From a virus (taxonomy: Duplodnaviria; Caudoviricetes): a stretch of DNA of 64,000 bases. Of the stretch, positions 20,990-49,391 are shown piece after piece. How positions within the stretch are numbered: the first letter of the stretch is position 1; each line of letters starts with the position of its first letter. The position numbers and the translations under genes were made by a program. A model generated the notes under the pieces. It had not been told where the DNA came from. It ran no database searches and saw nothing but the letters and a program-made list of their open reading frames with translations. The stretch is taken from IMG/VR virus record IMGVR_UViG_3300037067_009374, positions 27,076-91,075 of that record; one strand, written 5' to 3'.

Positions 20990-21643
20990 TTACTCTAAAT
21001 TTAAAAACTTGTGAAGTTGTACATTTATGTAAGCATCACCAAAACCAATTGTTGATAAGTCGTTTATCAACAATTGAATATTACTTGCAAATCTACTACC
21101 TCTCAACGGGGAGAATGCAAACCTAACAAGCTTATTTGATAGCCTTATTATGTTTGCAAAATCTACAGCTACTTGGTAATCAAAGTTATCTTTTATGACA
21201 AACTTGATGAAGTCACATTTCCTTAAACTTTTAAAAGCATCCATAATCATATGATGTTCCATATCTGAAGATGGAAGTTTATAATCTACAATAAATGATC
21301 CAACTGAATTACCAAATGGTACAATTGATCCATTTGTTTCAATAGAAACATCTATTTCCTCTTGATATAATCTGCTTGTCAATTCGAATACATTATCTTG
21401 AAGTAATGGCTCACCACCAGTTATTGTAACTTTATTGACTTTTCTGTTTTTAATTTTTTCCATTATACTATCAATGGACATAGTTATACCATTTTTTGAA
21501 TCTCTGGCTGTAGGAGAATCGCAATAAGTGCAAGAGAGATAACAACCCGCAAGGCGAATAAATGTAGACAATCTCCCTTGACCAAAAGCAGATACTTCAC
21601 CATCTATAGAAGTAAATATAGAATGAACATTCAAAGTTTTCAT
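20990..21643 (-). CDS. queE: 7-carboxy-7-deazaguanine synthase (radical SAM)
   Basis: IF.SIDGE, FIRLAGCYLSCTYCD, ITGGEPLLQ, IETNG, QLHK. Confidence 0.95.
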   Translation of the reverse strand: MKTLNVHSIFTSIDGEVSAFGQGRLSTFIRLAGCYLSCTYCDSPTARDSKNGITMSIDSIMEKIKNRKVNKVTITGGEPLLQDNVFELTSRLYQEEIDVSIETNGSIVPFGNSVGSFIVDYKLPSSDMEHHMIMDAFKSLRKCDFIKFVIKDNFDYQVAVDFANIIRLSNKLVRFAFSPLRGSRFASNIQLLINDLSTIGFGDAYINVQLHKFLNLE

Positions 21644-22011
21644 TTAAGTAAACCTTCCCTTTCCCATGATGCAGAGCAATTACTTGTTTCGAATAGTACT
21701 ACTTTCATAAGACCAATTGATATTTCTTCGAAAAGGGAAAAAAGTTCATTTACTATCCACACTACTATTCTTTCTGCTGTAGGGACAGGAAAAATGTCAT
21801 TTAGATATTTATGATCTAAAACAACAAGGATATTTTTTTGAACAATATCCTTAAATTCAGAAAAATCTAGTACCATTCCATCTGGTAATACTGTTCCGGA
21901 AATTGATACCTCGAGTTTATAAGAATGTCCATGAATGTTAGCACATTTTCCTGGATGATTTTCTAGCTTATGTGCTGCTTCAAACTCAAAGTGTCTTGTA
22001 ATTGTTATCAT
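21640..22011 (-). CDS. queD: 6-carboxy-tetrahydropterin synthase
   Basis: FEAAH, C..IHGHSY, GMVLDF, LDHKYLN, PTAE, ET. Confidence 0.95.
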   Translation of the reverse strand: MITITRHFEFEAAHKLENHPGKCANIHGHSYKLEVSISGTVLPDGMVLDFSEFKDIVQKNILVVLDHKYLNDIFPVPTAERIVVWIVNELFSLFEEISIGLMKVVLFETSNCSASWEREGLLK

Positions 22012-22208
22012 ATATTTGTCCTTCCAATTTGGAAAGCATCACTAGCAATACAACTCTTATTACTTTCCTCTCTAAATTCAAAAAATTCTTGCTTTACTTC
22101 AGCAGGCCAATCTTTGAAAGGTCCCCATTCAATAAAAAGCTTTTTCCTCTCTTCAATGATCTTTTCTACATTCCCGCATAAACACATAATTTTCCCCTTT
22201 CTTGATGA

Positions 22209-22964
22209 TTAGAAGTTATTAATAACATAAAATATCCGTGCCCCAAAGATTAATTGGCTTCCACTGGTATAGTGTACGTTGTCAAGATATCTAGTAAGTC
22301 CTGAATTAGACACGATACGACATTGTTCATCCTCCTTACAGAAATCTTCTTGTGCTTGAGCTACATTAAAAACATATGTGTATGGAACTTCAAACACATC
22401 AGTTGGCACAATGAGTATCGGGATAGTTGTCCCCAAATGCCCACGTATGCCCGCTACCATATCTTGAAGATTGTCCTTGTAAGCCACTGCTTTGTTTACA
22501 TCTACAGTGTCTCCTTCCCCTTGCAACCATATAAAAGCTTTGTAGGTAACTTCTCGTTGACCTACTACCCAGTCGATAATAGCTAACAGTCTATCATAGT
22601 ACACGCAATCCCTACACCACTGTTCTGCAAGGTTGGTCCCCCCCATACTTAACCGTATAACTATGTGGTCATCATTTGGGTAATTCACACCGAGTTGATA
22701 AGCTAGTAGAACCTCGGGTCCAAAATTTTGTTGGTTTGCAAAGTTATAATATCGACTTATCCAACTGAAGTTGGGATAATCGGATTCTACCCAGTATTCC
22801 ACATTATCGGGCACATTCTGACACCAGCCAGGAACATCCGCAGGGGAACCAGACATGGTATTGCTCTGCCCAGCTATTATCCACACCTTTGTTGCCGCGA
22901 TACCAGTAGTAGGTATCATGAGCAACACTAACACATAAATTATCATCCTGCTTATGGTCTTCAT
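22209..22964 (-). CDS. Secreted SGNH/SASA (sialate O-acetylesterase-like) esterase
   Basis: Signal peptide from ATG 22964 (SD AGGAG); AGQSN, FGPE, GGTNL, WLQGEGD, DNVHY. Confidence 0.82.
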   Translation of the reverse strand: MKTISRMIIYVLVLLMIPTTGIAATKVWIIAGQSNTMSGSPADVPGWCQNVPDNVEYWVESDYPNFSWISRYYNFANQQNFGPEVLLAYQLGVNYPNDDHIVIRLSMGGTNLAEQWCRDCVYYDRLLAIIDWVVGQREVTYKAFIWLQGEGDTVDVNKAVAYKDNLQDMVAGIRGHLGTTIPILIVPTDVFEVPYTYVFNVAQAQEDFCKEDEQCRIVSNSGLTRYLDNVHYTSGSQLIFGARIFYVINNF

Positions 22965-22965
22965 T

Positions 22966-23592
22966 TTATCTCTCCTTTTTATTGCAAAATTCCTCGGGTT
23001 CGTCCGGCACGATTCGGACCTTCGCGGCTTGTGACTTAAGTGAATCCCACACTTCGTCCTCATTTACAGATTCAGCCTTGATATATATTCCACCACGCGT
23101 CATCAATACGAACAGATGTCGCTTCCCGTTTTGTCGGTAGTGATTTATGCATCCTACATCCCAGTCTTGCAGACTGGGTGAGTTCCACGCATCAAGCCTG
23201 CCCTGGAGCGCGGCAAGTTCGGCTTCAACCTTCTCCTTCGCCAGCTTACTCTGCCCGGCGTGGTGAAGAAACTGCTCGTTCTCGTACCCGCAGCACTCAA
23301 GCTTGTGCTGGGTATCGGCGAGTTCCTGTTTCGCGGCTTCATGGGCGGTACGTTCGGCGATTAATTCGCCTTCGCATTCCACTGCAAGAACTTGTTCAGC
23401 CTTAAACCATCGCCAGTTATCATCCGCTCTTGCGTTTGCCTCGTCCCGTTCGCGGGTGAAAGCAGCGAGTTGGTTGTGGAGACGGCGGATCTCGGCCACA
23501 ACCTCCTTGAACTGGGACGCCCACGGTTCATAGTGGTAGCCGAAGTTTTCGCAAATTTGCTGCAATCTCGCTTCATCCATCGGTTCAGGCAT
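22966..23592 (-). CDS. Hypothetical coiled-coil protein in a GC-rich patch
   Basis: Intact ORF with SD; visibly GC-richer than its flanks. Confidence 0.65.
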   Translation of the reverse strand: MPEPMDEARLQQICENFGYHYEPWASQFKEVVAEIRRLHNQLAAFTRERDEANARADDNWRWFKAEQVLAVECEGELIAERTAHEAAKQELADTQHKLECCGYENEQFLHHAGQSKLAKEKVEAELAALQGRLDAWNSPSLQDWDVGCINHYRQNGKRHLFVLMTRGGIYIKAESVNEDEVWDSLKSQAAKVRIVPDEPEEFCNKKER

Positions 23593-23593
23593 C

Positions 23594-25123
23594 TCATTTC
23601 CCTCCTCTTACAATCATCGAATCAAGGTTAACTTGTCCAATATTCAAATTTTGCAATACGTAACAATCATCCTCTTCATCATAATAATCGTGTCGATGAA
23701 TAATTGTACCAACTCTAATAATTCCCAATCTTTTATCCTCTGCTGTTTGATTAATTGTTATGCCTGCATCTACATGTCCAAGTATAGCTCTGGCACGACC
23801 TATATTATCTTGCTTTAATTTTGGTAGATATAAAGCGTTGCTTGTGATCTGAGATGGTGCAATAAGCAGATAATTCTTTTCTGATGCTCTACCAACTATC
23901 TGCATCCATGTTTCATTTATTGATTCCCAGTCTTGCTTTTTATTATGAGATGGAATAGTTATTTCAGGATAATCCCAAATAAGCACTCTATATTTAAATC
24001 CAAGTACATGTTCAAGAATATCTAAATCCCTAAATGCATCATCAACAGATGCACCAAATCTAGGATAGCAGATAATTCTTAGATTATCATCCCCCATGAA
24101 CTTCCCATATTCTCTTACTTTTCCATAAACTGTATCATAAGAAAAAGATGGTCTTTCATATGATTCATACCAGTGTGCTCTTTCATAAGCTCTTGGATCA
24201 TTTGTTCTACACCATGTACATTTACGATAAGGAAGATCAGGGGAATATTGAGGAATATTCCCCTCTTCATTCAACAATGTATGGGCATTAGTTCTTTCTG
24301 CTCTATTGCACAAACCATTTTGATTTAGCTTGCAATCAAAAGAAGGGTAAACAAATACTCCCCCTTCTTTATCACCTGCTATAATTCTTTTATACAACCT
24401 TTTATTCATGTCCCTTTTTTTCATTTCAAAAGACATTACAGCAGTAGGAATATTTTGAGAGGAAGTAATAAAAGCAAACTCATTACAAAGATTAGTTTTA
24501 CCTTTCTTGTAACCTGCTGCTACAAGAATAGACCATCCGAAATCAAGTCCCCCTATAAATTCACCAAGATCACCTGGTAACTTAACTGGTCTATCTTCTC
24601 GTTCAAAAGCATCTACAATTTGAGAAGGATCAAAAGGATTGTACCAACCCGAAGATATTTTACTTATCTTTTTAACACCATTTATTTCTGCATCTGCATC
24701 TTCAACTCTATCCTGATCACAGTAAGCAAGAGCATTTTTTGCCCTTATTTCGATCTCTCGCTTTTTGAAGTATCTTAGAGCTTGTGTCAGAAGATATTCT
24801 TCGTTGAAATAAACGAGGTTTTCATATTCCCTTGATATGGAAGATAAGAAGATGCTTAACAACTCAGCTTCATCTTTCCTTAGTGCTTCCTTCTTACTTT
24901 CAAAGATTTGTTGAATGTTAAGTTTTGGTGCCTCGTTATAAGCAGCATAATAATTTTCTATCCAACTTGATATTGTCTTAGCATACTCTGCTTTGAAATA
25001 AGCAGGTTCAATACAGTGTAGGGTATTTCTTAGAAAGTCTGTGCTTACAATCATACCTGTTATGATCTGTTTCTCGATTGAAGCATCTATTATATAGCGG
25101 TCTAGCCCCTCTTCGAACGCCAT
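23594..25123 (-). CDS. Replicative DnaB-like (SF4) helicase
   Basis: Walker A AAGYKKGKT, SFEM, IWDY, PSQ, HVD...INQ. Confidence 0.78.
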   Translation of the reverse strand: MAFEEGLDRYIIDASIEKQIITGMIVSTDFLRNTLHCIEPAYFKAEYAKTISSWIENYYAAYNEAPKLNIQQIFESKKEALRKDEAELLSIFLSSISREYENLVYFNEEYLLTQALRYFKKREIEIRAKNALAYCDQDRVEDADAEINGVKKISKISSGWYNPFDPSQIVDAFEREDRPVKLPGDLGEFIGGLDFGWSILVAAGYKKGKTNLCNEFAFITSSQNIPTAVMSFEMKKRDMNKRLYKRIIAGDKEGGVFVYPSFDCKLNQNGLCNRAERTNAHTLLNEEGNIPQYSPDLPYRKCTWCRTNDPRAYERAHWYESYERPSFSYDTVYGKVREYGKFMGDDNLRIICYPRFGASVDDAFRDLDILEHVLGFKYRVLIWDYPEITIPSHNKKQDWESINETWMQIVGRASEKNYLLIAPSQITSNALYLPKLKQDNIGRARAILGHVDAGITINQTAEDKRLGIIRVGTIIHRHDYYDEEDDCYVLQNLNIGQVNLDSMIVRGGK

Positions 25124-38407: not shown

Positions 38408-39193
38408 TTAATAATGAAGTTTTCCTTCAGTCACGATAGTTTGTTTCACAAAACCATGCTTCACAAAATACTTCACATTTTTACTATCAGTGATATAAGT
38501 CCTGATAGTAATTTCTTTGATTCCAGGAAACTGTTCCATTGTTGTATCAAGGATTTCTTTCTGAGTATGTGTGCCTTCAGTTATCAATCCCTCTATGAAC
38601 TTAACTTTTTCGTATCCAGCACCTTTAACTCTTTTTGTACCAGAAGTAGTTGGGGTTGAAGTAGAAACAACCTTTTTCACTTTCTTCGGACCTTTTGTCT
38701 TAATTGTGCAATAAGCATACGACTTTGGATAATCAACTTTACAAGCTTCACAAGCAGGATCAGTTACATCTTGCTTTCCATACACATCACAAGGCATGTC
38801 AGATCCTTCACCTTGCCATGCATCAGCAATTTCATTTTCATTTGTACCTTCCTCTTTCACTTCCTCTTTCACTTCTCCCTGCTTCGCTTGTTCAGCTTCA
38901 GCTTTTTCCTCTTCAGGATACTTGCCAAAATTTCTTGTTATTCCATCAGTATCAACTTCAGGTTGAGTATTAACTCCTTCTGTTACAACTTTTTCAGCTT
39001 CAGGTTCAACAATTTTTGCATCAGATTTAGTATCTGCATTTCTTTTGATTAATACCTTTGCTTCTACGATTGCAGCAATAGCTGCCTCTTTTTCTATCTT
39101 GAACTCCTTTTTAAGGGTTGTGATAACTTTGGATTCTTTCATAGAATCCAACAACTCGACTGCACGATTAGCCATAACTTGTTCTACCGTCAT
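38408..39193 (-). CDS. Acidic protein with Cys cluster and the shared C-terminal helical domain
   Basis: C...ACEAC...YC; C-terminal KFIEGLITEGTHTQKEI...TYITDSKN; start 39193 has an SD. Confidence 0.7.
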   Translation of the reverse strand: MTVEQVMANRAVELLDSMKESKVITTLKKEFKIEKEAAIAAIVEAKVLIKRNADTKSDAKIVEPEAEKVVTEGVNTQPEVDTDGITRNFGKYPEEEKAEAEQAKQGEVKEEVKEEGTNENEIADAWQGEGSDMPCDVYGKQDVTDPACEACKVDYPKSYAYCTIKTKGPKKVKKVVSTSTPTTSGTKRVKGAGYEKVKFIEGLITEGTHTQKEILDTTMEQFPGIKEITIRTYITDSKNVKYFVKHGFVKQTIVTEGKLHY

Positions 39194-39292
39194 TTGATTC
39201 TCCTCTTTTCTCTCTTGGTTAAGGTTTATTACTACTGACACACAGGTACAAGGAAGTGCTCTAAAAAAGAGCACAACCTTCTAACTGCGTTT

Positions 39293-40268: not shown

Positions 40269-40574
40269 TTATAAAGGACTTACATCTGTTCTATATTCAC
40301 AGAACAGATCACTTATAGCCATTTTACGAATGAATTCCACAGATTCTTTCACACCACCAGAACAGTTTGTAGTGTCAAACCTTACTACGTGTGCAATAAC
40401 TTGAGCAACTATCCTGTCATCAACTTTCATGATGAAAGATCCACACCATAAAGGTAGACAAGAAAAATCAAGATTAGCTCCTTGCAGATCAGCCCCTTGC
40501 AGATCAGCCCCTTCACCATCTTCTTTACCATTCAACCAAAGTTCATGCTTCCTCAATACTTCTTGTAAATTCAT
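40269..40574 (-). CDS. Pentapeptide-repeat protein
   Basis: ADLQG repeats, DFSCLPLWCGS; N-terminus identical to that of 31296-31712. Confidence 0.85.
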   Translation of the reverse strand: MNLQEVLRKHELWLNGKEDGEGADLQGADLQGANLDFSCLPLWCGSFIMKVDDRIVAQVIAHVVRFDTTNCSGGVKESVEFIRKMAISDLFCEYRTDVSPL

Positions 40575-41386
40575 TTTTTCTCTCCTTCTCTCTTGTAATG
40601 AAGTTGTGAGTTAAAAGCAGTATTGCCCTATCATCAGATTGACACAAGAACTAGGAGGTTTATGCTTTCCTCCTAGAATTTCTGTCAACATGAGTTTTAC
40701 TTCATATTCGTAATCCAGAAATGCTTAAATCATTCTCCATTTAATTGTAGTAGAAAACATGTCCAAAAAACAGTCAATCTCTTCCGTAGTTCCAGTAGCA
40801 TAGTACCAACAATGATCTATGATGCTATACCATTTAATCTTGAACAACTTATTCTTTTTCATTTTCATTTCTCCTTTTCTCTTGTGTTGTGATTAAATGA
40901 CCAATTATTGTCTACTCAAATAGAATGGACAATAACCCAACATTTAATTCTTGTGAAATTCCATGTAAGTATAGATTGAAATACCGTTGTAATATGCCAA
41001 ATCTTTTAAATAAGAAAACTCTTTGCTAAGACAATCCTCATTGAACATTCTTGCTCCATTTTTCTTGATATATTCCTTAAGCTTTTTCTTCTCAGTTTTA
41101 CCTAATTTCCTAATAGTTAGATTCATTTCATTTCTCCTTTTCTCTCGTTTAGAATAAGTTCACCAAAAACACTTTGCTTTGCAGTAAAGAAACCAAAATA
41201 TCGTGCAAAACACCCAAATTCGCAGTATAAAGTGTGCTTTTTCAGTCAGTAGCCATAATTCAGCATCACATTCTCTTAACCTATAAATGTCAAAAGAACA
41301 CAATTCAGAATAAGCTAAATAACTGAAAATATTAGCTTTTTAACTGTAATTGTATCTCTTTTCTCAATTGATACTATTAACATCAT

Positions 41387-41428
41387 AAAGCAGTCAGATA
41401 AACAGAATCAAGAGTTTATCTGACTGCT
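41387..41428 (-). terminator. Intrinsic terminator-like hairpin after ORF 41436-41870
   Basis: 15-bp stem AGCAGTCAGATAAAC/GTTTATCTGACTGCT with a short U run on the minus strand. Confidence 0.6.
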
Positions 41429-41435
41429 ATAGCTG

Positions 41436-41870
41436 CTAATAGTGAAGTATGTTGCGTGCGTTTGTCAAAGTCAGCGCGTCAAACTTGTGCACTCTGAAGT
41501 ATCGCTCATTTTTCGAATCAGTGATATACGTGCGTACTGTGATGACAGCGAGATCATTGAACGCTTGACAAGTAAGCGCGACAACTTCTTTTTGAGTGTA
41601 TCGCGCTTGACTGATAAGAGATTCGATAAACTTTACACAAGAGTGCTTATCAGACTTTGCACGTTTGACTTTGTTGCTCTTGTCGAGTCTGATAGTTGAA
41701 ACATCGACATTATGACGAATCGCTCGACGCTCTGCTATACGTTGCAGAGTGCTTTTCTTTTCTTCAACTACTTCGCGTTGAACGTAAGCACGTGCGTTTC
41801 TGTCAGTCAAAAGCTCTTCAATCGAAGCGTTTTCGACGTTAACAACTCTTTTACGAAGTATTGTTTTCAT
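41436..41870 (-). CDS. Early protein with no Gly/Pro/Trp; paralog of the C-terminal domain of 38408-39193
   Basis: KFIESLISQARYTQKEV...TVRTYITDSKN...LHY. Confidence 0.85.
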   Translation of the reverse strand: MKTILRKRVVNVENASIEELLTDRNARAYVQREVVEEKKSTLQRIAERRAIRHNVDVSTIRLDKSNKVKRAKSDKHSCVKFIESLISQARYTQKEVVALTCQAFNDLAVITVRTYITDSKNERYFRVHKFDALTLTNARNILHY

Positions 41871-41898
41871 TGTTTTCTCTCTTTCTCTTGATTAGAAG

Positions 41899-42090
41899 TT
41901 AATTGCGTGAAAATCGTTTTCTCGTCTTTTTCTTAACGTCTTTCTCACACTCATCACAGTAGTAACTAGAACTATCTTTCAAATCTTTTCTGCATATTGC
42001 ACAAGTAACAGAATCAAAGCGTTTAAAGAACTTACTTGAATTATAAAACTTGTTTCTCTTACGTAAAACTACATTACATATCATAAGCAC
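41899..42090 (-). CDS. Small basic CxxC-CxxC zinc-finger protein (no Gly/Pro/Trp)
   Basis: CAIC...CDEC; purine-rich upstream sequence. Confidence 0.6.
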   Translation of the reverse strand: MLMICNVVLRKRNKFYNSSKFFKRFDSVTCAICRKDLKDSSSYYCDECEKDVKKKTRKRFSRN

Positions 42091-42159
42091 TCATTTCTTT
42101 AATTGTTCAAAGCATTTTTAATTCTTATCTCTTATCTAATGAGAGTGCAAAAGAATGAA

Positions 42160-42333
42160 TTAGTGTTTGATTGCATCACACACAAAGTTTTTCAGCAGAA
42201 TAAAGTGAATTTCTCTGCTATTCTTTTCTATCAATTCGCGTGCAAAAGATACTTGTCTATTTTCTGCTATCATGTTTCTAAGCATTTTATTTTGATGTTT
42301 AAGTAAATCAATTTTCAAAGTGTCATCATTCAT
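42160..42333 (-). CDS. 57-aa early protein enclosed by inverted repeats
   Basis: Below the ORF-track cutoff. MNDDTLKIDLLKHQNKMLRNMIAENRQVSFARELIEKNSREIHFILLKNFVCDAIKH; SD-like GAAAGTGAG. Confidence 0.65.
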   Translation of the reverse strand: MNDDTLKIDLLKHQNKMLRNMIAENRQVSFARELIEKNSREIHFILLKNFVCDAIKH

Positions 42334-42447
42334 TGTATTTGCTCACTTTCATAGCACTCTCATTAAAAAAGAGATAAGACAAAAACACTTGTCTTATTCA
42401 ACTATAAATCTAATCAGTCTCTTATTTATGCATAGCACAAAAAGAAA

Positions 42448-42663
42448 TTAAATCAGACATTCTTTTGCAGAAAACATACAATCTCTAGATTCAATCAAGT
42501 AAGCTTCTAAATCTTGATAAACATCTTCTGACATTTCGCAATCGTCATTACTTGCACTTGTCAAAAGATTTTCTCTTCTTGCGCGTCTTATATCGCTTAA
42601 TAGTGTTGCAATATCATTTCTTAACTCTTCAGTTTGTTCGTAAAACAATTGTTTTGTTATCAT
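42448..42663 (-). CDS. 71-aa acidic helical early protein enclosed by inverted repeats
   Basis: Likely start 42663 (MITKQLF...) after GAAATGAG. Confidence 0.7.
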   Translation of the reverse strand: MITKQLFYEQTEELRNDIATLLSDIRRARRENLLTSASNDDCEMSEDVYQDLEAYLIESRDCMFSAKECLI

Positions 42664-42690
42664 ACTAAACTCATTTCTAGTGCTATGCAT

Positions 42691-42724
42691 AAAAAAGAGA
42701 CTGACTAAAAGTACAGTCAGTCTC
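42691..42724 (-). terminator. Terminator-like hairpin plus U6 upstream of ORF 42448-42663
   Basis: GAGACTGACT/AGTCAGTCTC stem followed by U6 on the minus strand. Confidence 0.65.
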
Positions 42725-42751
42725 AATTTTCAAGAGAAAAGAGAAAAGAGA

Positions 42752-43450
42752 AAACTTAATAGACGAACAAGAGTTAAGAAAAACTCTCTTGTTATATGAT
42801 TTAATCTCTTGTCTATCATCGAATATTGAAGTTTGTTGTGCACTCACTTCTTACGTTCTATACATGCTTAGTCTAAATTATCAGCTCTTACACTGATTCA
42901 AGTTCGCATGTAATTTTCATGCTTTTTCAGAGCATCAGTACAAAGCAAAAACTATTGATACTTTGCACTAGAACAGAACAAATAGACAAGAAAAGCACTA
43001 GCTTTCTATTCGCATTGTACTAACTATGCTTTTACTCGCATAGCATCAGCACAAGAGAACAAAACGCTTGTCAGTCTATTAAGTTTAAGTTGTCAATTTC
43101 GCATATCTGATTATCAGATAGCTACTTCGAAAGTAGTTTGCACTTGTTCACGCTTGCATTTCAGCTAACTGTTAGACTCAAATGAAAATGTCTTAGTCTA
43201 CTCGACATTGCAATCTACATGACTTGCTACTTTGACTCGTCAGCATCTACACTATGCTGACAGTAGCAATCAAAGCATTCTCAGTCTAACTATTCGCGCT
43301 TACTCTGCTTGTCTACTATCATCAGCAGTCAAACGATAGCGTCAAGTGCGTCTAGTTTGTCTCTGTCAGAGCTTGCTCTGTCTCGCGATTGCACTCTGAG
43401 AGTCTCTCGCTATATGCGAGTACAAGAGTAATCACATGCAAAAGTTGTAC
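42752..43450 (-). ncRNA. Candidate large structured non-coding RNA
   Basis: No ORF of 60 aa or more; nested long-range stems 42752-42764/43074-43086 and 42807-42816/42982-42991, plus many local hairpins. Confidence 0.5.
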
Positions 43451-43894
43451 TTAATTTGATTACTTTATTCTCAAAATTAACTTAACTTATTGAATTGATT
43501 AAAAGAAGAATAAGATTTAAAACACAATTGTCTCAAGATAGATGATACAATTATGTGATTAAAAAGACACAAAAATAAAAGAGTTATTATTAAAAGAAGA
43601 ATAAGATGTTAAAATAACTTTGTTATAACATAGTGTTACTAAAAAGATACAATGTTACTAAAAAGATAAGCAGAGTATAGCAGAGCAAACAAAGCACTCT
43701 CAGCATAGCGTCAAATAGCGTCTACAACGTGTCTAATTTTTGATTTAAGACACTTTCAGCATAGAGCACGAAGAAACACACACACAGAGCATAGCAGAGC
43801 AAACAAAGCACTCTAAGAACATACTCTATTAATGAAGTATAGATTAAGATCTTTTGCAAACTTAATCATACTAGTTTAGTTAAGATTAAGTTAC

Positions 43895-44235
43895 TGACAA
43901 TTATTGTCACCTAATCAGTTCAATATGAAACAAAGCAAAAACGATTGTGAAGAAACAAAACATTGATTTTAAAGCGTCTAATAAGCGTTTTTAGCAAGGC
44001 AAAAGTCAAAACGTATGTAACTACGTCTTAGCATGAGATCGTCGATTGACTAGTCATTCTTAGATTTAACAAAGTCAATAAAATCAATAAGTTAAAAAAT
44101 AGCGTTTTGTACAATATTCTACAAAACACTGACAATTATTGTCACCTAAGTAAAAACACTGACAATTAGCGTCACTGAAACAAGCAAGACACATATGTTG
44201 CAGTTTGTTGCATACGCTAGTGACAAAATATGTCA
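43895..44235. repeat. Four TGACA-N5-TGTCA palindromic boxes
   Basis: 43895-43909, 44130-44144, 44160-44174 (one mismatch), 44221-44235. Confidence 0.75.
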
Positions 44236-45027
44236 GTGTATCAAGATAATATGAGACAATAATGAGACAGACTTGAGACATGTATCAGTCATGAGACAGT
44301 GAGACAATAATGTGAGACAGAGTGTTTTGTATGTAGTGTAGTTGAGTAGAGTAGTGATAAGAGAGCAGGATAAAAGAGTATGGATGTTATGTGTAGTGCT
44401 ATTTGTGTAGAGCGGAGCGATATATCATGAGGAGCAGTAGTATGCTGGAGCATTATACATATGTACGTAGGATACATATGATTATATACTGTTCAATTAG
44501 CACAGGATATATGTGCATAGCATGTTCAATATACAAATAATGAGCGATAGTGTAATCATATCATATGCATATGATATGATATTACATACAGTAGTTTATC
44601 AGACGTTGACGAGAAAAGCTAATGAAATCAATTACTTAGCCCCCTCGCTCTATCTCAAACGATTTGTTGTGTTGCTCGCATGGGGGTACCCACCACAAAA
44701 TTTTTTCCAAATAAAGTGAATGTTGCTTAAAGGTCCAGAAAAATTTTTTCCAAATAAAGTCAAAGTAGAGATTACCTCCAGAACATTTTAAATATAAAAC
44801 ATAAACCTTAATACAATTTTTAAGTATTCTTTTCTTTTACTACACTACTGTCAAACCCTCATTTCATAACCATTAAATATATCTCCAGAAATTTTCAATA
44901 TAAACAGACTTACTTTTGGGTATTGTTCCTTTATTAACCTTTAAATTTCTATTTTTTCTGGAGACTAATAAATATTAAGGGAATCACTGTTCATCATTAC
45001 TGAATGAGAACCATAACTTTGAAAATG

Positions 45028-45068
45028 AAAAGGTTTATACAGTAGACAATATCCTGTATAAACCTTTT
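45028..45068. terminator. Bidirectional terminator-like hairpin
   Basis: AAAAGGTTTATACAG / CTGTATAAACCTTTT. Confidence 0.7.
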
Positions 45069-45133
45069 GAATTTTTATGTGTTTAGCTTCTTACTCAGAG
45101 TAGTCTAAAACATACAAATCTCTGTTGATTTTT

Positions 45134-45162
45134 TTGCAATATTTATAAGAGGGAATTATAAT
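45134..45162 (+). promoter_or_regulatory. Sigma70-type promoter
   Basis: TTGCAA-17 bp-TATAAT. Confidence 0.55.
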
Positions 45163-46366
45163 GAGGTTAAGCTGAAAAGAAACCTAAACAATACTGATAA
45201 AGTATTTCTTTTGGGTGGATATTACATGTATACTTAATCCAAAGTAAGTTGTTATGTCTGGGAGATAATCTATTTGTGAAAGGCGTTTTACATGGTCTTG
45301 AAGCTTTTTATAGAGAAAGGTTGATAGGAATATTGTGGTGGGGTTTTTATCTTGGAGTATTAACTGGTTGATTCTTTCTCTGATTATAGTCTCCAATGCA
45401 ACTCCAAAGAAGGTTGGTTGAGGTTTTTTAATGTATCTGTAATATGATGTGAGTACGTTTCTTGTCGGCATTTTATTTGCTTTCTGAGAGTTTAAGGGAT
45501 ATATGTTCCTTAGTTTGGATCATGCTTTTCGATACAATGTACATGTGCATAGTAATCTCTTTTTCCTGATGTGCAAGAGACATAAACTTCTTTTTCTTTC
45601 TTTTGGATAGGTTGGTTACAATAATGACAAATGTGGACAGGTTTGTAATCGTTATGTTTATGAAAAGGATGATTGTAAAGGGATATTGTCATTACTTAAT
45701 CCTTAAGGAAGAATAAGAAATAAATGGCATAAGATACACCTTGTAGCAGAATATTTATGAGTATCCAAATAAATATTTCTTTTAAGGACGCATTAATCAT
45801 CTCCAAATCTTTCTTTGTATTTAATTTCTGCTTGGACAAGCTTTAGAGCGGTGTTGGCAAAATTTTGACAGAACCATTCTTGCTCTGTAAGCCATTTAAG
45901 GTACCATAATGGACAATCTTCAATACCAACACCTTTAAATTTGCTTTTTTCAAATGGAATGACCCACACTGAATCTGCCATTATTTCTCCTAACTTTTTG
46001 TAAGTTACCACGATTATTCCACATTTTTAATGTCATCAGTATGCCACGGAGTGGACAATCTTCAGTTTTACACCCTAATTTCTTTGGAGTATTTTGAGAG
46101 TAAGCTGGTTCTTGCCCACACCATGGACATTTTTTCATACATGTGCTCCTATCATTTAAGCAAGTTCTCTGGTGTTTCATCTTCCAGTACAGCAATACGA
46201 TTTGGTCTGATATACTCCTCTGCTACAAATGCAAGAATATCTTGTCCAGGAATTGATATTTGATTTATTCTTTCCTCCTTACAATTATCATTCAAGATTG
46301 TTACATCTCCAGAGAAATCAGGATTAAACCAAAACACTGTTCCTTTTGGCGCTTTATAGGTATGGC

Positions 46367-46726
46367 TCATGCATGTACCCCTGCTACTTTATTGTTTTTT
46401 GAACGGTAAGCGAAAGATGTTGGAAGTGATCTAATATATTCACCACGAGACATCCATCTACAATTATCTGGTGAGAAATCTTTATTCTCATCAAGTCTCC
46501 CAAGTATTGCACCCCCTTCAGGTAATTTGCCCATATCATCTAAAAAGTTCCGGAAAGACTCTAACCATCTTTTACATACTTTGATTCCTCTACCCCCATA
46601 GAGATCATATCTTATGTAATGTAGATTGTAACACTTGTTTTTCATACCGTAATATAAACGGTATTCAGCAGATTCGATTCCCCCAATAGTATGTCCATGA
46701 ATTACTCCTTTCCCGTTTCTTGCCAT
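46367..46726 (-). CDS. HNH-type homing endonuclease-like protein (possibly degenerate)
   Basis: YGGRGIKVCKRW..F.NFL.DMG...FSPDNCRW. Confidence 0.75.
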   Translation of the reverse strand: MARNGKGVIHGHTIGGIESAEYRLYYGMKNKCYNLHYIRYDLYGGRGIKVCKRWLESFRNFLDDMGKLPEGGAILGRLDENKDFSPDNCRWMSRGEYIRSLPTSFAYRSKNNKVAGVHA

Positions 46727-46892
46727 TCCATCTCTCCCTTTTTAGTAGGTTAATTATTGATTAATATGCTATTATTAATCATAATAGCATATTATGAAAA
46801 TCCTTTTGCACTTTTTTGATTGACTTTTAAAAATTTAGGATAGATTCTTAAATATTATAAAACCAAGTAAATTTAATTTAAGGAGATTTGAA

Positions 46893-47495
46893 ATGGCTAA
46901 AGGAAACCCCCTACCCGTTACTTATGAAGTTAAAGCGGGCAAATTAAACTTCTTTGCTGGTACGTATAAAGGCAAAGCTCTTTTTTCTTGGGATATTGTA
47001 GCTTCTTGTACAGGGGACAAGTGTCCTGCTTATCTTCGTTGTCCATTTGATGATAAAGATGGTAAAAAGGATAGGTGTGTAGTTCAGTTAAAATATGTTA
47101 AGGCAGCAGGTATGATGATGTTTAAAAATTATGCTAAGGTGTTGTCTTCATTCCAGTTATATGCTTTTGGTCTTCATGTAATGCCTCTTATAGCTGCACT
47201 GATAAAATTGAAATTGATTGAAATTGGTTTGGGAGTTGAAGATATAGTACAAGTAGGAAAAACAAAGTACATACATCCTGTGTTTAGGGAAATAAGAGAA
47301 ACTATTAGAGCAATATATTCCACTTGCAGAGAAGTAGGGATAGATCCAAAAACTTTGATAGGTGCATTAAACAAACCAAAGAATGATATATTTGAACTTG
47401 ATCAAAGTGACTATGTAACAGAATTAATGGGAGAAACAGATTCTCCAACTTCTCCTCAAAGTTTTAATTTTAAATCCCCTTCACAAAAAGAGTAA
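46893..47495 (+). CDS. Putative terminase small subunit
   Basis: First gene of the late operon, directly before TerL; YIHPV motif. Confidence 0.5.
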   Translation: MAKGNPLPVTYEVKAGKLNFFAGTYKGKALFSWDIVASCTGDKCPAYLRCPFDDKDGKKDRCVVQLKYVKAAGMMMFKNYAKVLSSFQLYAFGLHVMPLIAALIKLKLIEIGLGVEDIVQVGKTKYIHPVFREIRETIRAIYSTCREVGIDPKTLIGALNKPKNDIFELDQSDYVTELMGETDSPTSPQSFNFKSPSQKE

Positions 47496-47498
47496 TTT

Positions 47499-49391
47499 AT
47501 GTCAGTCCTTCCCATAAAAAGACGCCGAGTATCAACAGAACAAATCAAAGAAGAGAAACCTATAGGCAGAATAGCAAAATACAGGCAAGGCGCTGAAGGG
47601 TTTATATCCTGGTGTAATGAAAATGTAAGAATCAAGATATATCCAGAAGGTTCAGACATTGCTCAATGGTGTCCTATGAGCGAATTACCAGATACCCCTA
47701 ATCCGGAAACTGGTCGTAGTTATAGGGACATGTGGCTGTTTCAACAGGATCTAGTACGAGAAGCTCTTAAAATGGAAAACGGAAGGTTCATTTACCGACT
47801 TCTTGTTTTTTGTTGGATGCGTGGTGAAGGCAAATCATTACTCGCTTGTCTTATTCAATTATGGAAGTTCTTTTGTTGGCCCAAACAAGATATTGTTCTT
47901 GGTGCAAACAGCAAAGACCAGATTAAGTTTGTCCACTTTGATGTTATGTCTGATATAGTTCAACATTCTCCTGAATTATTGAAAATAGTAAAACAAAGAA
48001 ATGTTCAGCAAAAATCTATTCAAATAAAAGATAATAGTGGTCGTGTAGTAAGTACAATTCGTGCCCTGTCAAGCTTTTCAGGTATTGTATCAAACATTAC
48101 AGGATACACATTTTCTGAAATGTTCTCTATGAAAAATCCAAAGTTCTTTGTAGAGCTTGACGGTTCTATTCGTACAATATCTAATGCTTTAGGGGTGATA
48201 GACTCTACTGTATCCCCAAAACAACATCCATTGTATACAATGTGGAAAGACAAAGTAGAGAATAAACCAGGTACTGAAGGAATATTTTATTCGTACAGGT
48301 ATTCCGAAACTGGTGATAATAAAGATTGGTGGAATCCAAACATGACACAAAAGGAACTTGAGGGCTATAGAATCAAGTTTCCTTTTGGTGAATTTGAAAA
48401 ATTCTTTAAAAATTTGTGGTCAGCAGGTAAAATAAGGATATTCACCGATGAAATGATCGAAGCAATTTCCATTTATACTGTTGATGGGGCACTTGGTTGC
48501 CAAAATACTTTGATTGAATTACTTGAAGAAAAACATAGAATACTTAAACAAATCAGTGACCTTGGAATGAGGAATGTAGATGCCTTAGCTAGTAATGAAT
48601 CTCTTCTTGATGATATTGAAAAGAGATTCGGCAGAATAGCTAAAATCTATCAAATGCAAGATGCTTGGAATAGCAGACCTGCTACAATAGAAGAATTGAA
48701 TAAGCTTGGTACTTTATACGATACTAACTGGTCAATATTAGTTGGGATTGATCGTGCAGATCCAATGAAAACTCGTTCAAGTGCAAGAACTATGGTAACT
48801 TGTCTTGCAAAAGGTCTTCCTGGTTCTAAATCTAATCCATTTCAATTTTATGGAGAAGAAAATGTACCAAATTATTTGTATATAAGACTCCATCTTGCTG
48901 ATGTAACAGATCATTCTTTGGAAGGAATCAAAGAATTATTGAATCAATATCATGTAGAATATGATGGGATTGATTCAATTGGTGGAGAAAGATGGGGATT
49001 ATGGGATTTAGCACCCTGGGCAGAGGAAAGAAATATATCTTTTGATCTATTATTTCCCACTTATGATAGGCAAAGGTCTGCATTTGGTGAATTTTACTCT
49101 TCTGTATCAAAGGGATTGTTTAAATCTGCTCCTACAGGTATTCCTGGATCAAAATCAAGTGATATTCAGATAGAAGAAATGGAATTATTTGATCATGACG
49201 CACAAATAAAGTGGTTTGGTTCTCCTGAAAAAGAAGAAAAAGGTGGTGTGCAAGATGATTCCATCTTTGCAACAGGCTGGTCAATGTATTCAGGTAGAAA
49301 TCTGGGGGTAGAAAACTTCAAAGAACGTGGAAGTACTTCTCTTATCTTTGGTATATTCATTCAAGAAAAAGATGTTTTAGGAAAATATTAA
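47499..49391 (+). CDS. Terminase large subunit
   Basis: Walker A RGEGKS, ANSKDQ, nuclease motif VGIDRA...QDD; position before the portal gene. Confidence 0.85.
   Translation: MSVLPIKRRRVSTEQIKEEKPIGRIAKYRQGAEGFISWCNENVRIKIYPEGSDIAQWCPMSELPDTPNPETGRSYRDMWLFQQDLVREALKMENGRFIYRLLVFCWMRGEGKSLLACLIQLWKFFCWPKQDIVLGANSKDQIKFVHFDVMSDIVQHSPELLKIVKQRNVQQKSIQIKDNSGRVVSTIRALSSFSGIVSNITGYTFSEMFSMKNPKFFVELDGSIRTISNALGVIDSTVSPKQHPLYTMWKDKVENKPGTEGIFYSYRYSETGDNKDWWNPNMTQKELEGYRIKFPFGEFEKFFKNLWSAGKIRIFTDEMIEAISIYTVDGALGCQNTLIELLEEKHRILKQISDLGMRNVDALASNESLLDDIEKRFGRIAKIYQMQDAWNSRPATIEELNKLGTLYDTNWSILVGIDRADPMKTRSSARTMVTCLAKGLPGSKSNPFQFYGEENVPNYLYIRLHLADVTDHSLEGIKELLNQYHVEYDGIDSIGGERWGLWDLAPWAEERNISFDLLFPTYDRQRSAFGEFYSSVSKGLFKSAPTGIPGSKSSDIQIEEMELFDHDAQIKWFGSPEKEEKGGVQDDSIFATGWSMYSGRNLGVENFKERGSTSLIFGIFIQEKDVLGKY

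Follow-up and report, generated by a model that had tools for sequence, protein, structure and literature searches.

The window analysed here is a 64,000-nucleotide stretch of an uncultured phage (Caudoviricetes), comprising bases 27,076 to 91,075 of the 91,075-bp IMG/VR virus record IMGVR_UViG_3300037067_009374, and it contains a block of about 2.6 kb in which neither GG nor CC occurs on either strand. This ban is real and under purifying selection, and it recurs in related phages beside a conserved non-coding element upstream of the gene for the large terminase subunit (TerL). The same genome encodes a DpdA-type DNA transglycosylase and a complete 7-deazaguanine gene cluster. Our tentatively favoured explanation is that the block serves as a cassette for early control, from which the target of the phage's own DpdA has been excluded. 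Positions are those of the window unless another record is named, and the features discussed are collected in Table 1.

Extent and conservation of the GG/CC ban

A direct count placed the block between a CC at 41280-81 and the next site at 43910, a gap of ~2,630 bp in which 147 GG or CC dinucleotides are expected from base composition, or ~186 from the genome-wide rate of 0.071 per bp. To the right of the gap, sites were found at 43910, 43998, 44145 and 44368, with normal density thereafter. Both the length of the gap and the three isolated hits before ~44367 agree with a preliminary description of this DNA made from the letters alone. Likelihood-ratio segmentation united the core and its tail to 44367 in a zone of 3,087 bp with 3 sites against 219 expected. 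The largest GG/CC gap elsewhere in the genome is 92 bp, and for the other nine dinucleotide classes the gaps across the whole genome were not much above the chance maximum. On the + strand alone, GG is missing from 40927 to 43998 (3,071 bp), and a partial depletion of GG on that strand reaches back to ~40108 (6 GG against 17.7 expected).

The block is not simply poor in G and C, having a G+C content of 33.3% against 35.4% in the rest of the genome. As the preliminary description had also remarked, CG, GC and 4-bp palindromes persist in it; the observed/expected ratio (o/e) is 1.0 for CG and 1.59 for GC, and AG, CT and TC are mildly enriched (o/e 1.28-1.37). GATC is scarce (2 against 9.3 expected), while no other k-mer lacking GG and CC is markedly missing. 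Outside the block, GG and CC are not depleted (o/e 1.21 and 1.13, respectively). Separately, CpG is strongly depleted throughout the genome (o/e 0.43) except in the block, and a relative of higher G+C content (G002) shows no CpG depletion.

Relatives were sought in IMG/VR with TerL as the anchor, which yielded 283, and 86 loci were examined. A GG/CC-depleted segment of 0.3-3.1 kb was present in 37 of the 86, including 14 of the 16 whose sequence extends 5 kb or more upstream of TerL, with the block ending 0.8-4.8 kb (median 1.5 kb) before that gene. The scan of related phages proposed in the preliminary description thus returned the block across the clade, and GG/CC was the sole dinucleotide class that repeatedly formed such blocks. 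The near-complete genomes of the clade are this one (G000), G001, G002, G005, G006 and G007 (91-100% complete), and G008 (79%). Whole genomes carry a single block, of 3,126 bp with 13 sites in G001, 1,027 bp with seven in G002, 713 bp with one in G005, 1,016 bp with none in G006 and 1,478 bp with 25 in G008. An assembly artefact is ruled out, since the block reappears at the same place in relatives that were assembled independently.

Block-bearing lineages share only ~50% identity in TerL, and most of the block sequence cannot be aligned between them. When the 37 blocks were pooled, all 16 NGGN contexts stood at 0.02-0.16 of expectation. This uniform depletion indicates that the word being read is GG itself, on either strand, and rules out a longer banned word. 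Approximately 20% of the possible point changes in the block would create a GG or CC. In 1,000 simulations of 24% random divergence over a 761-bp ORF-less stretch (ORF, open reading frame), ~31 sites were gained, with a minimum of 15, whereas the aligned ortholog of this stretch in the related locus L007 contains two. Purifying selection therefore keeps the ban in place.

The relatives recognised through TerL range from 33% to 50% GC, and their bins are metagenome-assembled genomes of nine unrelated phyla, which we read as mis-binning. Searches with the block (blastn) and TerL (tblastn) against 50,697 isolated phages returned zero matches, and the clade accordingly has no cultured relative among them.

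The edge of the block falls exactly at the CCCCCTCG element, CCCCC(C)TCG..TATCT, in many lineages, and at the second half of the element, ..CACCA(T/C)AAATTTTTTCC, in others. Across the clade the element reads CCCCCTCG..TCTATCTC.....GGGGGTACC..AAATTTTTTCC (44638-44715 in the window, L007:6844-6920, L016:6482-6560 and many other loci), at 0.8-2 kb upstream of TerL. The element is probably a packaging or terminus signal (cos/pac or a terminal-repeat boundary), and the coincidence of its position with the block edge would anchor the block to that signal. The location of the block beside this element, upstream of the terminase genes, fits first-injected DNA. Folding of the CCCCC...GGGGG element was no better than that of shuffled sequence. 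The contig starts of relatives showed no pile-up at it, and thus they provide no evidence on the termini. The ends of the present record overlap by 127 bp, which resembles the mark or artefact of a circular assembly. The preliminary description had set the block at the head of the early arm, a placement that did not hold, as leftward ORFs (45184-46726) as well as a repeat-rich gap separate the block from the terminase genes.

Block genes and a recoded protein family

The block looks like one control region and one transcription unit. Its credible genes all lie on the minus strand, and all four of the encoded proteins (71, 57, 61 and 144 amino acids (aa)) are devoid of Gly, Pro and Trp; none gave an above-threshold match in PHROG or Pfam. 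At the right edge are the operator-like palindromes TGACAAT(N)ATTGTCA, a scan for which returned 7 matches against 2.1 expected. They are followed in the minus sense by the ORF-less region, two patches of which (42730-42806 and 42993-43134) have 77-78% identity to L007. An Rfam search over 40500-47000 gave only chance-level miRNA matches. The 18-bp-stem hairpin directly downstream of the 144-aa gene is the probable end of the transcription unit. Gene orientation within the block differs among lineages, and in L016 the genes point towards the conserved element. Inverted repeats surround the 57-aa gene (26 nt at 92%, 42123-42379) and the 71-aa gene (43 nt at 81%, 42401-42717), and through them the 5' untranslated part of each mRNA would base-pair with its 3' counterpart.

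The main gene of the block encodes the 144-aa protein, whose ortholog in L007 is 43% identical. Its C-terminal 76 residues have 46% identity to the C-terminus of a 288-aa paralog encoded just outside the block, with the Gly and Pro residues of the paralog replaced. A profile search of 1.8 billion representatives recovered 170 proteins with this domain of ~80 residues, for which the consensus is F..LI.EGKYT.KEI...FP...STI.T.LTDSKNPKYNKF..LV..D..GILSF. Gly, Pro and Trp together make up 8% of typical family members, and at most one such residue was present in 14 of the 67 aligned. Four alignment columns are occupied in the other members by G (35 of 53), P (43 of 53), P (34 of 53) and G (32 of 53), i.e., in 60-81% of cases, and all four are replaced in each of the 14, by many different residues. 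Two of these 14 were checked, and both are encoded in GG/CC-free DNA: L196 (2.28 kb with one site) and L199 (977 bp with one CCC site).

All four of the ordinary members that were looked up (P0015, P0018, P0032 and P0017) are encoded beside QueC, QueE, QueD, FolE or QueF. These sequence comparisons identify the main gene of the block as a paralog, free of Gly and Pro, of a protein family found in que clusters. A protein with a C-terminal, winged-helix-like TDSKNPKYNKF domain regularly accompanies phage 7-deazaguanine genes, usually encoded immediately upstream of QueC, with que-cluster loci at 20116-20865 (minus strand) in the window and at L193:5537-6325, L197:131-1093 and L198:5904-6518. It belongs to no Pfam family, its match to DUF7669 being weak.

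An AlphaFold (AF2) model of the 144-aa protein, with a predicted local distance difference test score (pLDDT) of 85.6, begins with a long helix, after which three helices and a hairpin follow; its secondary-structure elements are in the order that a winged helix would have. The best Foldseek matches to the model were the DNA-binding domains of ArgR, Fur/PerR, BlaI and MotA, none of them significant (E 0.19 or worse), and the predicted fold is best termed winged-helix-like. The genes annotated as 'transcriptional activator' beside QueE in phages Iggy and CAjan were also considered and rejected as relatives, having no homology to the block protein family.

DpdA and competing explanations for the ban

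The genome encodes a complete 7-deazaguanine cluster (16938-22011), consisting of dpdA with folE, queD, queE, queC and queF. In tblastn searches, DpdA was 31-38% identical to phage loci, among which are DpdAs annotated in Iggy and in CAjan-type phages, although its ORF did not match the Pfam TGT family (PF01702). FolE, QueD, QueE, QueC and QueF matched PF01227, PF01242, PF04055, PF06508 and PF14489 above the Pfam cut-offs. The presence of QueF predicts a preQ1-type base (PMC10516641). The check for co-occurrence of block and dpdA suggested in the preliminary description found dpdA in all seven of the most complete clade genomes, i.e., this genome and six relatives.

According to the reading we favour, GG would be the context in which the DpdA of this clade swaps guanine for a preQ0- or preQ1-type 7-deazaguanine, and selection would have purged every GG/CC step from a cassette of operators, promoters, an ORF-less structured leader, three small genes, the gene for a winged-helix-like regulator and terminators. 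Adjoining the probable packaging or terminus signal, this cassette would enter the host first and would be the only part of the virion DNA left chemically ordinary and unmodified. It could then be used by host RNA polymerase and regulators immediately on entry and, as its products take control, may go unnoticed by host enzymes directed against modified DNA. END nucleases target 7-deazaguanine DNA early in infection, and phage-encoded inhibitors of them exist (PMC12191111); the Dag1 and Dag2 glycosylases also attack such DNA at this stage (10.1101/2025.10.29.685425). Given these enzymes, an unmodified cassette that is expressed first would have an obvious use.

The uniform depletion of NGGN contexts makes the banned word two bases long, which is the size of known DpdA motifs: GA in Iggy (PMC10484667), GA and GGC, with GGT as a secondary motif, in CAjan (PMC7544227), and 'GA and/or GG' in PA5oct (PMC12191111). 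Words containing GG are thus among those modified by relatives of this DpdA, namely GGC and GGT in CAjan and possibly GG in PA5oct. Furthermore, the same word is banned in relatives of diverse bins and 33-50% GC, for which a reader carried by the phage is a simpler explanation than one host system. Iggy, whose motif is strictly GA and for which experiments established terminal repeats of 1,091 bp (PMC10484667), is a more informative case outside the clade. In the final 628 bp of its record (MN029011.1, 59958-60585), just upstream of the first leftward gene, GA/TC is 7-fold depleted (11 against 77 expected). Over its first ~1 kb (1-1000), a length matching that of the terminal repeat, the depletion is ~1.5-fold. 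The own-motif depletion at the end of the Iggy record thus resembles the GG/CC ban described here, although it is weaker. DpdA had been one of three options in the preliminary description, and it now has real, if circumstantial, support from the clade-wide block and dpdA, the que-family paralog and the terminal depletion in Iggy. Extending this beyond the present clade, it is possible, though still short of probable, that phages which modify guanine at a two-base motif keep an early control cassette motif-free and exempt from their own modification, here with a recoded copy of a DNA-binding family associated with que and dpdA.

Several observations weigh against this reading. The block and dpdA are both clade-wide, so that their co-occurrence amounts to one phylogenetic event, and in one genome that encodes dpdA (G007, 98% complete) no block was seen, although its contig covers just 3.6 kb on the upstream side of TerL. 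A motif-free block is likewise missing from CAjan (GA/GGC), and four further dpdA phages, 58-72 kb in size, lack a GG/CC-poor one; DpdA phages therefore do not share the rule as a group. Some clade genomes show avoidance of GGCC and CCGG (o/e 0.37-0.65), an unexpected feature if GG is well protected, although Iggy likewise avoids GATC (0.76), making palindrome avoidance a weak test. The block proteins of other subclades (L092, L060 and L016) show no detectable relation to the que-cluster family, no published evidence indicates that 7-deazaguanine hinders transcription, and we infer, rather than observe, that GG is the motif of this DpdA.

A DpdA 34% identical to the present one is encoded by an unrelated jumbo phage (G018, IMG/VR 3300022698_000267, 273,563 bp), which has short GG/CC-poor segments near its contig ends (1936-2494, 255994-256324 and 264981-265253); in one of the three, GA and TG are absent from one strand as well.

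Alternatively, and in our estimation unlikely although the strongest competitor, the ban may serve as stealth against a host reader of GG/CC, with first-entering DNA presenting no protospacer adjacent motifs (PAMs) for CRISPR and no GG-containing restriction sites until early proteins act. The entering end would thus be protected both from early targeting and from the acquisition of spacers. GG/CC read on either strand corresponds exactly to a two-base PAM (type I-F CC, Cas9-type NGG). In most relatives the block adjoins the conserved element at 0.8-1.9 kb before TerL, the usual location of cos/pac sites, and so would be the last part to be packaged and the first to be ejected. Modell et al. 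2017 reportedly found type II-A spacers to be preferentially acquired from the injected end, and Strotskaya et al. 2017 are said to have found T5 sensitive to CRISPR in its pre-early region only. PAM depletion in phages is, moreover, documented (PMC4246573). However, the hosts are probably very diverse, yet one word is banned in every lineage; the rest of the genome is not depleted of GG/CC; the orientation of the block genes varies between lineages; and the que-family paralogy of the main block gene would be left unexplained. In view of the diverse-phylum bins, the 33-50% GC range and the normal frequency of GG elsewhere, the PAM and unknown-GG-sensor options of the preliminary description are less economical than DpdA.

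It is improbable that the reader acts on RNA or transcription, with early transcripts kept free of GG and CC because of an RNA-cleaving or RNA-modifying toxin or Shine-Dalgarno-like pauses. Such a reader would suit the organisation of the block, which matches a single transcription unit that begins with operators and promoter and closes with terminators; in L016 it again matches one unit, on the opposite strand, where the sole GG run kept in the zone is a ribosome-binding site. It would also suit the small extension of the + strand GG-free zone (40927-41280), which reaches over the next leftward gene. However, GG and CC are equally banned, which would need two separate RNA rules, and the ORF-less and operator DNA obeys the ban as well. 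To our knowledge, no RNase or toxin reads both GG and CC. Avoidance of Rho, which reads YC, was rejected, as UC is normal in the block mRNAs (GA on the + strand, o/e 1.07). Mutation pressure, for instance by a CC-specific deaminase repeatedly erasing CC/GG in highly exposed DNA, would agree with the slight enrichment of AG, CT and TC in the block, but we regard it as very improbable: G+C has not been lost, CG and GC rise in compensation, and the block boundaries are sharp. The common Gly and Pro positions of the family are, in addition, replaced by many different residues, and GGs of ribosome-binding sites and hairpins are retained where needed.

Exemption of the cassette from the phage's own modification thus remains our tentative preference, and it places this genome beside the DpdA phages, with which it shares DpdA, the FolE-QueD-QueE-QueC-QueF set and a banned word of DpdA-motif size, whereas CAjan has no comparable block. 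The first-step-transfer (pre-early) DNA of T5 is reportedly without EcoRI sites, and the leading end of T7 without host restriction sites. In those phages, as probably here, a target word is purged from a local early-gene stretch near a genome end and kept in the remaining genome. The present case differs from both in three respects: what has been purged is a dinucleotide, it is absent throughout 2.6 kb, and the proteins are rewritten. It differs from T5 in that PHROG and Pfam revealed no A1-, A2- or dmp-like pre-early genes among the block proteins. Published depletion of CRISPR PAMs and restriction sites in phage genomes likewise reflects selection against a short word read by defences, but it is genome-wide and partial (Kupczok and Bollback 2014, PMC4246573), whereas the ban described here allows no exception within a single block, outside which GG/CC lies slightly above expectation. 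Full-text literature searches found no description of a kilobase-scale dinucleotide-free cassette or of a modification-exempt phage region. New in this analysis are a survey of the whole clade, a test for uniformity of context, the que-cluster family with its recoded copies, the conserved boundary element and the terminal depletion in Iggy.

If the block marks the motif of the phage's own enzyme, dinucleotide-free cassettes would offer a sequence-only read-out of the target of an unknown DNA-modifying enzyme. Hypermodified phages would then need one unmodified 'ignition' stretch to start infection, a weak point for host defences or phage engineers. If a host factor reads GG/CC instead, the blocks would point to a widespread and undescribed sensor. 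Either way, selection at the level of DNA can strip three amino acids (Gly, Pro and Trp) from whole proteins, and an uncharacterised protein family is flagged as a regular member of phage 7-deazaguanine clusters.

Features of the window

Elsewhere the window holds replication genes in a leftward arm (DNA polymerase, clamp, primase and helicases) and head genes in a rightward module (protease and major capsid protein).

Table 1. Positions of the block, its components and the related features in the window
Feature	Position	Strand	Remarks
DpdA-type DNA transglycosylase	16938-17855	-	phrog_887, 1.9e-47
QueF, FolE, QueC, 249-aa TDSKN paralog, QueE, QueD	18157-22011	-	preQ0/preQ1 pathway
249-aa TDSKN-domain paralog	20116-20865	-	between QueC and QueE; hhalign probability 99%
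288-aa paralog	38408-39274	-	normal Gly/Pro content
Left extension of the block	40927-41280	+	GG absent on + strand only (template strand of leftward genes)
Core block	41281-43909		GG/CC absent from both strands, 0 observed vs 147 expected
Hairpin with 18-bp stem	41386-41431	-	directly downstream of 144-aa gene
144-aa protein	41436-41870	-	no Gly/Pro/Trp; long N-terminal helix and C-terminal winged-helix-like 'TDSKN(P)KY' domain
61-aa CxxC...CxxC zinc-ribbon-like protein	41899-42084	-	no Gly/Pro/Trp; zinc-ribbon matches all sub-threshold
57-aa ORF	42160-42333	-	no Gly/Pro/Trp; inverted repeat 42123-42148 / 42354-42379 around it
71-aa acidic ORF	42448-42663	-	no Gly/Pro/Trp; inverted repeat 42401-42443 / 42675-42717 around it
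Terminator-like hairpin, then T run	42697-42724	-	ends the ORF-less region
ORF-less 1.2-kb region	42730-43890	-	many short hairpins; upstream of the genes in the minus sense
Four operator-like palindromes TGACAAT(N)ATTGTCA	43893-44239		starts 43895, 44130, 44160, 44221; right edge of block
Tail of the depleted zone	43910-44639		3 GG/CC sites up to 44367, then purine-rich repeat region (GAGACA-type) up to the conserved element
Conserved non-coding element CCCCCTCG..TCTATCTC.....GGGGGTACC..AAAATTTTTTCC	44638-44715	+	clade-wide
Unannotated 200-aa ORF, perhaps small terminase subunit	at 46893		between block and TerL
Large terminase subunit (TerL)	47499-49391	+	anchor for relatives

Two further features of the window were observed. 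The DNA polymerase (1,265 aa, 10197-13994, minus strand) contains an HNH endonuclease domain at residues ~682-778, between polymerase segments, which is possibly an inserted homing element or intein. The region 22001-24000 forms a G+C island (40-46% against 33-35%) and carries a gene for a SASA-type sialate O-acetylesterase (22209-23063). A genome search with this esterase gave no close match, and the island is possibly a recent acquisition.

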